From NCBI GenBank assembly GCA_031409655.1, contig JANNXQ010000179.1, positions 1 to 52,941 of the forward strand: a stretch of DNA of 52,941 nucleotides, written 5' to 3'. The stretch comes from Chthoniobacteraceae bacterium. GTDB taxonomy: Bacteria; Verrucomicrobiota; Verrucomicrobiia; Chthoniobacterales; Chthoniobacteraceae. The position numbers were made by a program, and so were the translations under genes. The notes below the pieces were generated by a model. The model was given only the letters and a program-made list of their open reading frames with translations, had not been told where the DNA came from and made no database searches. Shown piece after piece: positions 1,468 to 44,092 of the stretch (the stretch's first letter is position 1; every line of letters begins with the position of its first letter).

Positions 1468-1505
1468 ATGATAGATTATCTATCATGCTTGGCGATCCGG
1501 GTCAA
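1468..1505 (-). promoter_or_regulatory. Putative TA promoter and operator: perfect 9-bp inverted repeat over a candidate -10, with TTGACC as -35
   Basis: ATGATAGAT-T-ATCTATCAT at 1468-1486, 1 nt from the antitoxin ATG. On the minus strand TTGACC (1505-1500, overlapping the hsdR stop) is followed after 17 nt by TAGATAAT. Confidence 0.65.
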
Positions 1506-3910
1506 GCGGCGTAAAGGAGCTCCTGGAGTTTCGCGACGGCGGTGCGGAACTGGTCCGCCCCTCCGAAGCGCTGGGTAATCTCGGTGACGTTGCCGAGGTC
1601 GGAGAGTGGCGGGACTTTCAATGAGTCGGGGATGCTGAACTCAGCTGGGCCGTGTTCGGCGTATTTCGCAAGGAGCGCGTCGAGAATCTGGCGGGCCTGC
1701 TCCCCGTATTCCTCGAAGAAGGACGGAGCATCCTTGCGCAGACGGGCCGCGCGTTCCTTGCGCGTGAGCACGGGGGCTTTCCAGGCAATGTTGCAAAGCA
1801 GGTCGAAGGGGTCGGCATCGGGATTGCCAAACGCTTCCCCGGCTTCGGCGGCGCTGATGCCTTTCGCTTCCAGCGCGGTCAGGATTTCGGCGCGGCGGTC
1901 TGGGTCGGCCCAGCCGTGGCGGAACTCGGCGACATCCACGAAGAGCGAGCGGACGACTTCGCTGGTGTAATCACGAAACTCGGTGGCGCGAAGCTGCTTT
2001 CCCTCTGCGTCGAGGTCCTGCGTCAGATGCGTGGAGATGCTGACCTTGCCTTTGGTGACGTAATACTTGGCGGGGTCTTCTCTGAGCACGGGTGAATCGA
2101 TGATGACGGGTGGCTCGGGATCGACGATGACCTCTTCGCCGTCATCACCATCCCCGTCTTCGCCGTCCGTGTTCTCGGGTCCGGGGTCAACGACGGTGGT
2201 CGTGGTGGTGTTGCCGTCGCCGTCTATTTCTTCCTCGGAAACAAACTCGGGATCGCCGTCGAACTCCTTGTCGGCGAAGTGGCGCGTTGCCGTGCCGGTG
2301 TAGTCGAGGATGTTGAAGTAGAACTTGCCGTAGTCCTCGCGGAGGCGCGTGCCGCGTCCGATGATTTGCTTGAACTCGGTCATGGTGCCGATGACGCGGA
2401 TGAGCACGACGTTCTTGACCATCGGAGCGTCCACGCCGGTGCTGAGAAGCTGGGACGTGGTGAGGATGACGGGCGTTTCGGTTTCGAGTTCCTGAAAGCG
2501 CCCGAGATGGCCTTTGCCGATGGCCTTCTCGTCGGAGGTCACGCGGCAGACGTAGTCCGGGTGCATTTTGACGATGTCGGGGCTGAGATTGTTGAGCAGT
2601 TGCCGCATCTCGTCGGCGTGCTCCTGGTCCACGCAGAAGACGATGGTCTTGTCGTAGGGATTGGTGCGCTGGAGGAAGTTCGTGAGGTGCTTCGCGATGG
2701 CCTCGGAGCGGGGACGCAGCGAGAGACGTCTTTCAAAGTCAGGCGTGTGGTATTCCTCGTCGGGAATCTCGCGGCCCAGCTTGTCGAGTTCGCCTTGGGT
2801 CGGACGCCAGCCGGTGGCGTCGGCGGAGGTGACAATGCGATGCACGCGGTAAGGCGCGAGGAAGCCGTCGGCGAGGCCCTGGCGCAGGCTGTATTGGAAA
2901 ATGGGATTCCGGAAGTAACGGTAGGTGGCTTTGTTGTCCTTGCGCAACGGGGTGGCGGTCATGCCGATTTGCACGGCGGGTTTGAAGTATTCGAGAATCT
3001 CCCGCCAGTTGCTTTCCTTCCGAGAACTGCCGCGATGGCACTCGTCAATGATGATGAGGTCGAAGAAGTCGGGCGCGTATTCCTTGTAAAGCCCAGGGCG
3101 GTTTTCGTCCTCGGCGATGGACTGGTAGGTGGCGAAATACATCTCGCGGCTTTTGATGGCGTCGCCGTTTTCAATCTTGTGCCGCGCATCGCCGAACGGG
3201 ATGAAGGTTTTGTCCTTGGGATCATCCACGAGGATATTCCGGTCTGCGAGGAACAAAATCTTCGGACGCTTGACCGGGTCGTTGCTGCGGTTCCAGCGGG
3301 TGGACCAAAGTTTGTAGCAGATTTGGAAAGCGACGACGGTCTTGCCCGTGCCGGTCGCCATGGTGATGAGGACGCGGTTTTTGCCCCGCATGATGGCATC
3401 CACGGCGCGGTTGATGGCGATTTGCTGGTAGTAGCGCGGCGGGCGTTCGACGTCGTGGTAGAACGGCGCGAGAATCCTTTCGACTGCGAGCGTGGGAAGT
3501 GGCGCGGCTCCATTCAGCCGCGCCCACAGCTCATCGGCAGTCGGGAAATTATCAACGCTCCGCTCAATGCCAGTCGTGTAGTCGAACTCGACGATGCCTT
3601 GGCCATTGGTGGAATAGGCGAACTTCAAATCGAGAATTCCGGCGTATTCCTTCGCCTGCGAGAGGCCAGCGCCCGGCGTTTTGTAGTCTGCTTTTGCCTC
3701 AACTACCGCGATTGGAAAGTCTGGCCGGTAGCGCAGGAGATAGTCGGAGCGTTTCGGTTTTCCGCGAATGATTTTCCCGCCGACAACGCGGATGCGGCCC
3801 TTGGGATTGGTGAAGCAGCGTTGCTCCGCGATGCTGAACGGCGCATTTTCCCACCCGGCTGCCTGAAGCAATGGGACGACGTATTTTCGACAGGTGTCAG
3901 CTTCGTTCAT
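1502..3910 (-). CDS. hsdR: Type I restriction endonuclease subunit R (EcoEI-like C-terminus)
   Basis: Start MNEADTCRKYV. Nuclease motif SDYLL...VVEAK, Walker A MATGTGKT, DECHR, ATP motif TATP, QIIGRGTR. Confidence 0.95.
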   Translation of the reverse strand: MNEADTCRKYVVPLLQAAGWENAPFSIAEQRCFTNPKGRIRVVGGKIIRGKPKRSDYLLRYRPDFPIAVVEAKADYKTPGAGLSQAKEYAGILDLKFAYSTNGQGIVEFDYTTGIERSVDNFPTADELWARLNGAAPLPTLAVERILAPFYHDVERPPRYYQQIAINRAVDAIMRGKNRVLITMATGTGKTVVAFQICYKLWSTRWNRSNDPVKRPKILFLADRNILVDDPKDKTFIPFGDARHKIENGDAIKSREMYFATYQSIAEDENRPGLYKEYAPDFFDLIIIDECHRGSSRKESNWREILEYFKPAVQIGMTATPLRKDNKATYRYFRNPIFQYSLRQGLADGFLAPYRVHRIVTSADATGWRPTQGELDKLGREIPDEEYHTPDFERRLSLRPRSEAIAKHLTNFLQRTNPYDKTIVFCVDQEHADEMRQLLNNLSPDIVKMHPDYVCRVTSDEKAIGKGHLGRFQELETETPVILTTSQLLSTGVDAPMVKNVVLIRVIGTMTEFKQIIGRGTRLREDYGKFYFNILDYTGTATRHFADKEFDGDPEFVSEEEIDGDGNTTTTTVVDPGPENTDGEDGDGDDGEEVIVDPEPPVIIDSPVLREDPAKYYVTKGKVSISTHLTQDLDAEGKQLRATEFRDYTSEVVRSLFVDVAEFRHGWADPDRRAEILTALEAKGISAAEAGEAFGNPDADPFDLLCNIAWKAPVLTRKERAARLRKDAPSFFEEYGEQARQILDALLAKYAEHGPAEFSIPDSLKVPPLSDLGNVTEITQRFGGADQFRTAVAKLQELLYAA

Positions 3911-3920
3911 GATGTTAAGC

Positions 3921-3953
3921 GGCGAGGTGGTGGATGAAGTGCTGCACCCAGGC
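3921..3953 (-). pseudogene. Remnant of a second hsdM (AWVQHFIHHLA segment)
   Basis: Translates AWVQHFIHHLA, matching from memory the conserved NANFAWVQHFIHHLAP segment of a common HsdM subfamily. Only 11 codons. Confidence 0.6.
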
Positions 3954-3957
3954 AGGC

Positions 3958-4066
3958 AAATGACGAATGCTGAATTTCGAATGTCGAATTGGGGCCAATG
4001 CAAAGAGCCAGGTCCGAGTTTTGACCGGCGTTCCGTTCATCATTTGAAGTTCGTCGTTCATCGTTC
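3958..4066. repeat. Palindrome of degenerate heptamer arrays (downstream flank of the four-helix-bundle gene)
   Basis: AAATGAC GAATGCT GAATTTC GAATGTC GAA (3958-3988) faces TTCATCA TTTGAAG TTCGTCG TTCATCG TTC (4036-4066). The second arm contains the gene's stop codon. Confidence 0.7.
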
Positions 4067-4436
4067 GCTTCCCCTTGCGGTTTTTCGGGACGCCACGGTG
4101 ATGGCGACGAGTTGATTCGCTTCGTCGAGCAGGCGCGCCAGTTCTTGGGAAATTCGAACGTCGATTTTCAATTGTCGAAGTGCGCCAATATCGCGGATGC
4201 ATTTCGAGCCAGAAGCCGCTTTCGTCTGCTTCTTCTTCGACGGTTCCGAGTTTCGAGATGAAGTCGGCTTTCGATTTTCCACGACACGCTGAACGGTAGT
4301 TGGCCGCGACCGAACTGGACGAGCGGATGACTTGCCCGATGGCGTGGCGTGTTTCCAAGACTTGCGGAAAGCCAGCGCACAACCCGATGACGTCGAGCGC
4401 GAATTTCTTGGTTCGTTTCTTCAGTTCTTCACTCAT
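4058..4436 (-). pseudogene. Four-helix-bundle protein (23S rRNA IVP / bAvd-like family), +1 frameshift
   Basis: MSEELKKRTKKFALDVI...QVIRSSSSVAANYRSACRGKSKADFISKLGTVEEEADESGFWLE continues in another frame as CIRD...LLDEANQLVAITVASRKTAR. Span is 379 nt (3n+1), with an extra A in GAAA at about 4202-4204. Confidence 0.85.
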
Positions 4437-4438
4437 GC

Positions 4439-4515
4439 GAATTTCGATTGTCGATTTTCGAATGCCGAAGTGAAGCTGCTGCGGTTCGGCATTCGCACTT
4501 TGCAATTCGGCATTC
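4439..4515. repeat. Palindrome of degenerate heptamer arrays (upstream flank of the four-helix-bundle gene)
   Basis: GAATTTC GATTGTC GATTTTC GAATGCC GAA (4439-4469) faces TTCGGCA TTCGCAC TTTGCAA TTCGGCA TTC (4485-4515). Confidence 0.7.
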
Positions 4516-4519
4516 CCGC

Positions 4520-4591
4520 GGTGGGCTGCTTGGCGCTGGCCTGGAGGTGGGACCAGCGGGCGTCGGCGGTCACCCAGAAGACGTTCTCGGC
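4520..4591 (-). pseudogene. Remnant of a second hsdM (N-terminal domain segment)
   Basis: Manual translation AENVFWVTADARWSHLQASAKQPT matches from memory the HsdM_N segment AENVFWVPxxARWxxLQxxAKQPxIG. Preceded by an in-frame TAA, no start codon. Confidence 0.75.
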
Positions 4592-5127
4592 TTAGCATAG
4601 ATTCGCGCCTCCGCGCTCAGGGCCGTGCGCGAGAGGGACTCGTCCGTCGGCTTGGGCGATCGAACCAGCCCGCCAACGTCCGCGCATTCGGATGGGGAAA
4701 ACCACTTCACTCACGGCGGTGGACGCTGGCGAAGGTGGGGGCGGGGGTAAAGGGCAATTCGCGGCAGCCGCTTGGGATCTACCGCCACCCGGTGCAAGGT
4801 CAGAGGCGCTGGCTGGCGATCGGGGAGCGGGGAATTTTTTCGGGTACGACTCTGCCGGGGCGGTGAAGATGGGCGTTTCCCCGAGGCGGCAGGGCTGCTA
4901 TGGAAAGGATCGTGCGTGCTGTGCCCATGAACCCTTCGCTCGCGGATGACGCGCTGTTCGCGATGGGCGCGATTTCGGGCATCGGGGAAGGGTGCGCGCA
5001 GCCCGGTGCGGCGCCTCGGTCTGCCGCGGGACAGCGCGCAGACGGCGGCTTTTCTGCGGCCCACTACGGCAGAGTGCATGGATGCCCCGAAGGTCGTGCT
5101 CGATGGCGGGACGATGGCGCAGCCGCT

Positions 5128-42781: not shown

Positions 42782-43969
42782 CTACCCTGGCAGACACGCC
42801 GGGCCGATGGGCTCGAAGCTTTTGTAAACGAGCGAAAATTCGCGGTGGCCGAGGGCTTCGCTCGCGGTCTGGCCGCCGGCGGCGACATGCAGGATGCGGT
42901 CGTAGATTTCGTCGCCCACTTCTCCCAAGGTCGCGCGGCCTTCGAGGATGCGGCCGGCGTCGATGTCCATGTCTTCGCTCAGGCGGCGGTAGGTCTCGGG
43001 ATTCGCGCACACTTTGATGACGGGGGAAATGGCGCTGCCGACCACGGAGCCGCGGCCCGTGGTGAAGACGGTGACGTGGGAGCCGCAGGCGATGAGTTCG
43101 CCGATCTCCTGGATGTCGCTGATGTTCGGGAAGCCCCAGCGCGGCTCGCCATCGGGGACGACATCGAGGAGGTAAAGTCCGCCGCGCGGCGGCACATCGC
43201 CAGGGGTGAGGATGCCGGCGATGGGGGAGTTCCCACTCTTGCTGTAGGCCCCCATGGATTTCTCCTCCTGCGTGGTGAGGCCGCCTTCGGCATTCCCCGG
43301 CGCAAAGCTGCCGTGGCCCATGGTGGTGTAGTAACGCGCGGCTTTTTCCACGCAGGCAATGAGCGCGGGCGCGAGCTCAGGGCGCGCGGCGCGGGCGGCC
43401 ATGATTTGCTCGCAGCCGATGAGTTCGCCGGTTTCCTCGAAGATGACGCGGGCGCCGCTTTTCACGAGTCGATCAAAGGCGAGGCCGACGGCGGGATTCG
43501 CGGTGATGCCGCTAGTGGCATCGGAGCCGCCGCAGACGGTGCCGACGACGAGTTCCTCCACGCTCATCGGCGCGCGCGGCACGGCGGCCACTTTCTCCAG
43601 TGCCGACTCGATCCACGCGCGCCCCTCCTCGATCGTCTTCCGGGTGCCGCCGGTCTGCTGGATGACGAGGGTGCCCGAGGGGCGTCCGGTGGCCTCGATC
43701 TCGCGGAGGAGTTCCTGGCGGTTGAAGCCTTCGCAACCGAGCGAGACGAGCAGGGCGGCGCCGACATTGGGGTGCGTGCAGAGCTGCCGGAGCATGCGGT
43801 GCGCGTAGGCATTGGGGTAGCAGCCGGGGAAGCCGAGGAGATGCAACGCGTGATCGCGAAAGGGCTGGACGATCTCCCGCGCGACGTGGTGGGCGCACTC
43901 GACGAGATAGACGACGACGGTGATGTTGCGGATGCCTTTGCGGCCGTCGGTGCGGAGGTAGCCGGTCAT
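42782..43969 (-). CDS. UxaA/GarD/SuyB-family dehydratase, large subunit
   Basis: GYLRTDGRKGIRN, HPNVGAALLVSLGCE, CGGSDATSGITANPAVG, GNAEGGLTTQEEKSMG, FTTGRG. Confidence 0.9.
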   Translation of the reverse strand: MTGYLRTDGRKGIRNITVVVYLVECAHHVAREIVQPFRDHALHLLGFPGCYPNAYAHRMLRQLCTHPNVGAALLVSLGCEGFNRQELLREIEATGRPSGTLVIQQTGGTRKTIEEGRAWIESALEKVAAVPRAPMSVEELVVGTVCGGSDATSGITANPAVGLAFDRLVKSGARVIFEETGELIGCEQIMAARAARPELAPALIACVEKAARYYTTMGHGSFAPGNAEGGLTTQEEKSMGAYSKSGNSPIAGILTPGDVPPRGGLYLLDVVPDGEPRWGFPNISDIQEIGELIACGSHVTVFTTGRGSVVGSAISPVIKVCANPETYRRLSEDMDIDAGRILEGRATLGEVGDEIYDRILHVAAGGQTASEALGHREFSLVYKSFEPIGPACLPG

Positions 43970-43979
43970 GGGGAATGGG

Positions 43980-44083
43980 GAACATCGAACGTCGAACGTC
44001 GAACATCGAACATCGAGCACGGAGGAAGCGCGGGAGTCTTCTGCATTCGATGTTCGATGTTCGATGTTGGAAGTTCGATGTTC
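43980..44083. repeat. Gene-less palindrome of heptamer arrays
   Basis: (GAACRTC)5 GA at 43980-44016 faces TCGATGT TCGATGT TCGATGT TGGAAGT TCGATGT TC at 44047-44083. Confidence 0.88.
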
Positions 44084-44092
44084 ATCCGAGGC

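Follow-up and report, generated by a model that had tools for sequence, protein, structure and literature searches.

The window, the whole 52,941-nt stretch of DNA that was analysed, is contig C179 of genome G000 (6.85 Mb, 63% GC), assigned to a Chthoniobacteraceae bacterium; loci, genomes and contigs are labelled L, G and C throughout. On its minus strand a gene of the four-helix-bundle (FHB) family lies between two palindromes within the remains of an hsdM methylase gene. The order along this strand is hsdM stub, arm F1, 15-nt loop, arm R1, FHB gene, arm F2, 47-nt loop, arm R2, hsdM stub and hsdR, with the following features:

4600-4619, minus strand: tail of a different palindromic insert of ~62 nt (by-eye comparison with the L041 and L098 inserts)
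4520-4593, minus strand: 5' hsdM stub, HsdM_N region, ending AKQPT (BLASTP E 1e-11, L009 residues 167-192)
4519-4485, minus strand: arm F1, five heptamers, first base exactly at the hsdM junction
4470-4484, minus strand: left-palindrome loop of 15 nt, possibly decayed hsdM from just after the HADT motif
4469-4435, minus strand: arm R1, five heptamers, running into the FHB start
4058-4436, minus strand: FHB gene, lineage A (TIGR02436/PF05635), with a +1 frameshift near 4198
~4179-4145, minus strand: internal R-type arm within the FHB gene (alignment)
4070-4036, minus strand: arm F2, of five heptamers, which covers the FHB stop codon and an ATG for restart (4061)
3989-4035, minus strand: right-palindrome loop of 47 nt, resembling hsdM just upstream of the junction
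3988-3954, minus strand: arm R2, five heptamers, ending at the right junction common to lineage B and gene-less derivatives
3922-3953, minus strand: 3' hsdM stub (AWVQH...), L009 residues 403-413
3915-4598, minus strand: open frame of 227 codons through the whole unit, created by the frameshift and ending 4 nt before the hsdR start
1502-3910, minus strand: EcoAI/FtnUII-family hsdR (NF046051, 995 bits against a cut-off of 550)

The unit between the stubs measures 566 bp (3954-4519) and has four outer arms of five heptamers each, with AA at the end in F arms and TT at the start in R arms. An earlier note on this DNA had described the same palindrome-gene-palindrome layout with a size of 558 bp (3958-4515) and 4-bp gaps to the HsdM peptides; the layout stands, the size does not, and the bases of the supposed gaps belong to the outermost heptamers. 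Three of the four outer arms carry the exact fivefold heptamer pattern, for which 0.005 occurrences are expected per shuffled window (200 shuffles). The arms of the inverted arrays described earlier are thereby confirmed, and the single palindromes that they form are degenerate, with weak hairpin scores (z = -1.8 and -1.6). A heptamer run that had been seen inside the gene proved to be the internal R-type arm, at whose position L032 and L117 align with a full in-frame palindrome. The outer arms pair in the predicted fold; the whole unit as a stable RNA hairpin was rejected because this fold is no better than those of shuffles (z = +0.2). The left loop of L032 finds its best hsdM match just after HADT in three of four references and its right loop just upstream of the junction in two of four, with scores not above shuffles in either case; the loops of the window and L041 mostly miss these positions, and we keep a host origin of the loops as a lead only.

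The stubs are 96% (5') and 97% (3') identical in DNA to the intact hsdM L003. As had been proposed for the peptides AENVFWV...AKQPT and AWVQHFIHHLA, they are collinear on one HsdM: both align to L009, an intact HsdM with HsdM_N and N6_Mtase domains, at residues 167-192 and then 403-413. The gene had rightly been called destroyed, but it is not merely interrupted: residues 191-402 of L009, or 212 codons, are absent and ~636 nt have been replaced. The SAM-binding and NPPF catalytic motifs of a functional type I HsdM both fall within the lost residues, and on this sequence the window's methylase would be unable to work. In other hsdM relics, inserts of the ~62-nt palindromic type directly precede the AENVFW motif, and here the insert sets the relic's 5' limit. 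Upstream of the relic, positions 4683-4763 match G000:C256 around 4690-4780 (L115), another hsdM relic, in which a short in-frame leader has been fused to hsdM immediately past the AKQPT site. The downstream hsdR opens a type I operon, and the hsdM of that operon belongs to another subfamily (34% identity to L009 over 93 aa); a Phd-PIN toxin-antitoxin pair (763-1466) lies between these two genes. The flanking ORFs scanned encode HsdR, Phd, PIN, HsdM and a GH5 hydrolase.

HMM searches place the FHB gene above both family cut-offs (TIGR02436, 64.6 bits against 24; PF05635, 38.5 against 33.8), bearing out the family assigned to it before. One extra base near 4198, lacking in four of four orthologues, shifts the reading frame by +1 after codon 79, and the window copy has no intact bundle-forming ORF. 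The FHB ORF is intact in the orthologues L032, L041 and L097, at 77-85% protein identity to the window copy, and contigs from three runs of a single study, one run possibly being the source sample itself, also show the extra base. No near-identical copies, such as an IS or MITE would leave, were found at unrelated sites of the genome, where the closest paralogue has 56% protein identity. The protein is homologous to 2RLD (E 9e-9), whose structure holds five chains; by homology to this structure and to Xcc0516, it is predicted to form a pentameric ring. The window's FHB gene is 95% identical to that of L117 and its palindromes are 82-87% identical to those of L041/L032 and 58-65% to those of L117; gene and palindromes thus have different closest relatives, which argues that the window's unit is a recombinant mosaic.

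A genome in 306 contigs with 5% contamination, containing hsdM pieces that are near-identical across strains, invites the explanation that the unit is a metagenome assembly chimera of repeats and hsdM pieces. We hold this to be very improbable, since a single contig from run X1 spans 3924-4549 without difference, reaching 30 letters beyond each junction (the mapping rule asks for 31), and L032 and L041, which come from other assemblies, have identical junctions while their genes are 8-15% diverged. The depth of the X1 contig is 14.9 over the unit and 8-9 beside it; contig depth is no copy number, and the excess may hint at a second copy. In matching RNA data sets the shares were 0.07 or less.

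Filled and empty sites

Among 29 hsdM relatives the downstream motif is visible in 24, all of which are native there, with the minimal spacing of 702 nt in six. A second site lies between trpE and trpG: of the 25 among 30 family loci with trpE adjacent, four hold an FHB cassette, one holds an arm and another gene, and 20, including a same-genus genome, hold neither. Presence/absence polymorphism, on which the earlier note had made its case depend, is therefore found at both places. At trpE-trpG, L151 carries one resident-type heptamer arm followed by a small non-FHB gene, from which it appears that arm cargo may be exchangeable. Heptamer-free loci at the same place (L158, L162, L163, L168 and L171) have other palindromes with period-9-like arms; the trpE-trpG junction is used by several repeat families.

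Contig C66 of the same genome provides a second hsdM case, with an FHB gene 40% identical to the window's and an identical right junction position. We searched for this junction with a pattern demanding a non-native base before it; the pattern selects the junction, and its constancy is therefore no test of polarity. All ten matches in genomes have an R arm ending there and none keeps the adjacent upstream hsdM. Three of 12 metagenome matches are armed; of the nine without an arm, three are unrelated sequences and six are hsdM (two being duplicates) that differ by point changes or small deletions. An arm at the AWVQH junction with intact upstream hsdM was found in none of the 13 armed matches. 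The shared right junction carries two FHB genes (~40% identical) as well as gene-less forms.

When L001-L116 and the window were mapped on L003, which introduces less bias, 202 gaps appeared. Heptamers are present in 21 of these, from which L072 (twice), L082 and L103 were dropped as lying in variable loops or as spanning other genes. L033 and L037 are identical in sequence and were counted once, and L034 is a composite. That L033 and L037 stand under MAG titles of different taxa points to recent transfer or mis-binning. The FHB cassettes in hsdM belong to two lineages (positions from the mapping on L003):

Lineage A: window, L032 and L041 at 260 to 969; L097 at ~830 to 870; also L117
Lineage B: C66, L033/L037, L036, L038, L042, L049, L085 and L117

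Lineage A is thus present at two hsdM sites, L097 marking the other one, and lineage B has several left ends; in L117 a lineage-B and a lineage-A cassette stand in tandem in one hsdM relic. Gene-less heptamer palindromes occupy other hsdM sites, and since L040 keeps a six-codon remnant of the lineage-B gene, such palindromes can derive from cassettes.

None of the heptamer events mapped on L003 is a clean insertion. Host sequence is lost at every one (by BLAST ends, uncertain by ~3 nt), the shortest losses being 4 (~9 by eye), 18, 21 and 36 nt, whereas an IS or MITE inserts without loss of its target, usually duplicating it, and 31 of the 58 rows listed for other insert families in hsdM lie at -3 to +6 nt. 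Within the precision of these alignments, the comparison shows that heptamer elements occupy the place of host bases rather than adding to them. A possible 4-nt repeat at the right end of lineage A was seen by eye only, the junctions being BLAST ends. A native stem-loop as the target site was rejected for want of complementarity in three events inspected by eye.

A preformed, transposase-less palindrome-gene-palindrome cassette that inserts whole, with the FHB protein itself or a host enzyme acting in trans, would fit the patchy occupation of orthologous sites, the finding of lineage A at two places in hsdM, the several left ends of lineage B, the purifying selection on the FHB gene (see below) and the inverted outer arms. 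We nevertheless consider such a cassette unlikely: besides the lack of clean insertions and the mosaic unit, the sole match above 59% identity outside G000 in 401 class genomes again lies in an hsdM relic, close relatives of the window's FHB gene were found in hsdM relics only, and SMC and QueG genes bear arms without any cassette. The same observations, together with the broken gene, fail to support the insertion of a 558-bp unit as one piece that had been put forward earlier. The earlier note's second option, loss of the gene's middle between two insertion sites, has a parallel in another insert family, in which one insert joins two distant sites in five of the 58 listed rows, as expected from recombination between two copies. 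The native AKQPT end resembles the left end of L097 over ~11 nt, so the window's long loss is also possible by microhomology. The unit is an hsdM-resident, recombined and decaying cassette, not a free 558-bp transposon.

The same host gene collects further inserts. In L004, L023 and L027 a DUF559 nuclease-like domain is fused in frame within the HsdM variable loop, bracketed by a different palindromic repeat, as a second gene-plus-repeat family. At least three more insert families of 30-128 nt occupy fixed hsdM sites (L001, L002, L036, L044, L085-L092, L097, L101 and L115); nearly all keep the frame, and at several sites the sequence differs between genomes.

Reading frames through the relics

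Of 19 events, which are not independent because lineages share ancestry, 17 still lead translation into the downstream hsdM frame; L035 and L049 break it. In lineage A the hsdM frame stops on the FHB start codon (ATGA overlap), and the FHB stop overlaps, or comes directly after, an ATG in the downstream frame, that of the window (4061) being in frame with the 3' stub. Six copies of lineage B have no stop in the hsdM frame anywhere across the FHB gene, where it coincides with the -1 frame of that gene. A third-position T is seen in none of the 28 columns where it would create a stop, against 25 of 63 others (Fisher 2e-5, overstated because the copies are related). As controls, seven of eight other FHB genes of the genome have stops in that frame and one has none; in these genes T is already about half as common at stop-prone sites as at others (17/160 against 122/499). 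The FHB gene itself is under purifying selection, lineage-B pairs differing by 19-37 synonymous and 1-4 non-synonymous codon changes.

The open frame of a relic often terminates at or next to the following start codon. Sixteen neighbouring ORFs comprise six restriction or methylase genes, two without a match, two RhuM, a DUF4011 helicase, a phosphoesterase, a nucleotidyltransferase pair, DUF4386 and AraC; by these assignments, the genes downstream of relics are mostly predicted restriction or defence genes. Given that the methylase would be unable to work, we infer that the frame is retained by selection against polarity, which suggests that dead hsdM is kept open as an expression leader for exchangeable defence genes.

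Heptamer arms across the genome and in coding genes

The genome contains 531 period-7 arrays, compared with 17-37 for periods 5, 8, 10 and 11. At a looser threshold there are 639, of which 599 are no longer than 42 nt; the length distribution has maxima at 30-32 and 37-40 nt, corresponding to five or six repeated cores, and drops after 41, so that arm length is capped. Neighbouring arrays are inverted in 187 of 215 pairs. Ten genes match TIGR02436, seven of them inside detected inverted pairs; those of C66 and C179 have arms by inspection, and that of C23 was left out of the arm count. In class relatives, arrays stand on both sides of 28 of 29 FHB genes but of only two of 58 control windows, which agrees with the expectation raised earlier that homologous genes would be heptamer-flanked. 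Short gene-less inverted pairs outnumber FHB genes by ~17 to 1 (170 against 10), and arms often end beside start codons. One such gene-less palindrome, of the genome's commonest heptamer type, lies elsewhere in the window (43969-44090), before a minus-strand start codon.

Arms also lie within coding genes. In the hinge of SMC, an F arm and an R arm stand ~150 nt apart, in frame and with SMC sequence between them, in four of 30 family genomes (G000, G650, G641 and G639); the same-genus G659 is native.

G000:C293 17242-17457 (L193, L218), also L219, L221 and L233: SMC hinge arms

Three heptamer types occur across the four carriers, and the second arm matches its own first arm at 5-7 of 7 positions as against mostly 3-5 across genomes. 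The gene's length is unchanged at site 1 and increased by 12-21 nt at site 2. The site-2 scores in L223, L227 and L234 proved to be native sequence, not arms, and L228, which looks like a decayed arm pair, was left out of the count. An extra palindromic insert lies beside the second SMC arm in L221. A single ancient gain, followed by drift and losses, could also explain the SMC arms. In the QueG linker, two relatives have single arms of different types and two others none. Overall, long frames with codon bias contain seven of the 170 short inverted pairs, for example the frames of SMC, QueG, DnaE2 and squalene cyclase (named by resemblance), so that heptamer arms reside in frame in working genes, as RPE do. 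In-frame heptamer palindromes were seen on contigs C127, C137, C103, C253 and C53 of G000, in squalene cyclase-, QueG-, DnaE2-, permease- and ABC-fusion-like ORFs; the DnaE2 site of a same-genus genome is occupied by another kind of palindromic element. With matched arms on host sequence, SMC lends independent support to the repeat-templating system that the earlier note had offered as one option.

Arms might also have arisen passively, by slippage and quasi-palindrome template switching without a dedicated protein, and be retained as RNA hairpins or FHB-binding sites affecting translation or RNA processing; the FHB protein would then be a regulator or hitch-hiker, and hsdM relics would simply collect repeats and deletions. 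This would account for the excess of gene-less pairs, for the unrelated inserts and repeat-free deletions that the hsdM subfamily also gathers, and for arms ending beside start codons, as described in the text of the report on TAACTGA repeats (PMC4679880). Slippage alone predicts a long tail of array lengths, however, in place of the observed peaks and drop, and both SMC arms switch type together across ~150 nt. A passive origin therefore seems to us possible but doubtful.

Known systems and a proposed origin

The nearest likeness is to 23S rRNA IVS with an ORF. The Coxiella IVS gene has heptamers before it and is excised by RNase III, as described in the text of Warrier 2016 (PMC4990558), which also covers the Xcc0516 pentamer; it shares with the hsdM cassettes the protein family, complementary arms round the ORF, a patchy distribution and tandem heptamers of variable copy number just before the start codon (S23p; PMC4990558). 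The hsdM cassette differs in having a protein-coding host, two palindromes and an internal arm, in losing host coding sequence and in keeping translation frames, and its flanks are hsdM, not 23S rRNA. By analogy, it may work like an IVS placed in an mRNA, but it is not an IVS.

PF05635 has been linked to Avd of DGR (PMC10053308), and the likeness to Avd comes by way of this shared family. The four-helix bundle is homologous; Xcc0516 is reported to be a homopentamer, and 2RLD holds five chains. DGR retrohoming likewise replaces sequence rather than adding it. Reverse transcriptase and template/variable repeats are, however, absent from the window's scanned flanking ORFs, and no adenine mutagenesis was seen. 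The Beggiatoaceae TAACTGA repeats are dispersed heptamers, often beside start codons (MacGregor 2015, PMC4679880), and resemble the arrays here in forming hundreds of short period-7 arrays; the main text of that paper reports no four-helix or S23 genes and almost no inverted sets, compared with 187 of 215 here (PMC4679880).

By its target loss, its lack of near-identical copies and its scanned flanks, the cassette qualifies neither as an IS or MITE nor as a DGR. Dispersed heptamer repeats are also found in cyanobacteria as STRR. Small palindromic elements that lie in frame inside genes, in gene-bearing and gene-less forms, are represented by Rickettsia RPE, cyanobacterial SDR and REPIN/MITE, which are known as additions of conserved sequence. 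Heptamer arms, in contrast, come in varying types and without a transposase, take the place of host bases and can enclose host DNA.

Starting from the replacement, site residence and mosaicism observed, from the retained frames and from the arm pairs on host DNA, we favour, with about even confidence, the reading of the unit as a decaying cassette from an FHB/heptamer-arm lineage resident in one Verrucomicrobiota hsdM subfamily, with arms laid down by templated patching. Arms and FHB gene would first have replaced short pieces near the HADT-AWVQH region, giving an L097-like state; a later deletion, via microhomology or arm-arm recombination, would have joined AKQPT to the left arm, and further deletions would have reduced hsdM to the two stubs, through which translation now passes to an unrelated hsdR. 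Spread between genera may have occurred by homologous recombination in near-identical hsdM stubs. Arms of five to six units would be patched over host DNA from existing arms, in matched inverted pairs, by gene conversion or template switching. FHB genes would be cargo held between the arms and encode putative arm binders, as the five-membered ring of solved relatives suggests; the frames would stay open because a stop would have polar effects on the defence genes that follow. Against this reading stand the lack of a parent with an arm and intact upstream hsdM (0 of 13 armed matches), a junction chosen by the search pattern, events of shared ancestry, loops no more host-like than shuffles, the general scarcity of T at stop-prone sites, the broken frames of L035 and L049, a possible single gain in SMC and the weak hairpins.

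A literature search, covering the main text of mostly open papers, found no description of hsdM or any other coding gene with FHB cassettes or heptamer arms; what is new here are filled-versus-empty comparisons of FHB/heptamer elements in coding DNA. Coding targets give alignable empty sites, unlike intergenic examples, and the coding cases show replacement rather than addition, frame retention and arms around host DNA. TIGR02436 is a large family without an assigned function, and bacterial period-7 repeats have no accepted origin. Only tentatively do we suggest what could connect them: a transposase-free, protein-assisted system that would overwrite host DNA with matched pairs of five-unit arms in frame, even in essential genes, and convert both arms to a new type together. 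The predicted FHB ring would measure or hold five units and travel as cargo, and the window would be a footprint of this process, its hsdM now a translated leader for swappable defence genes.
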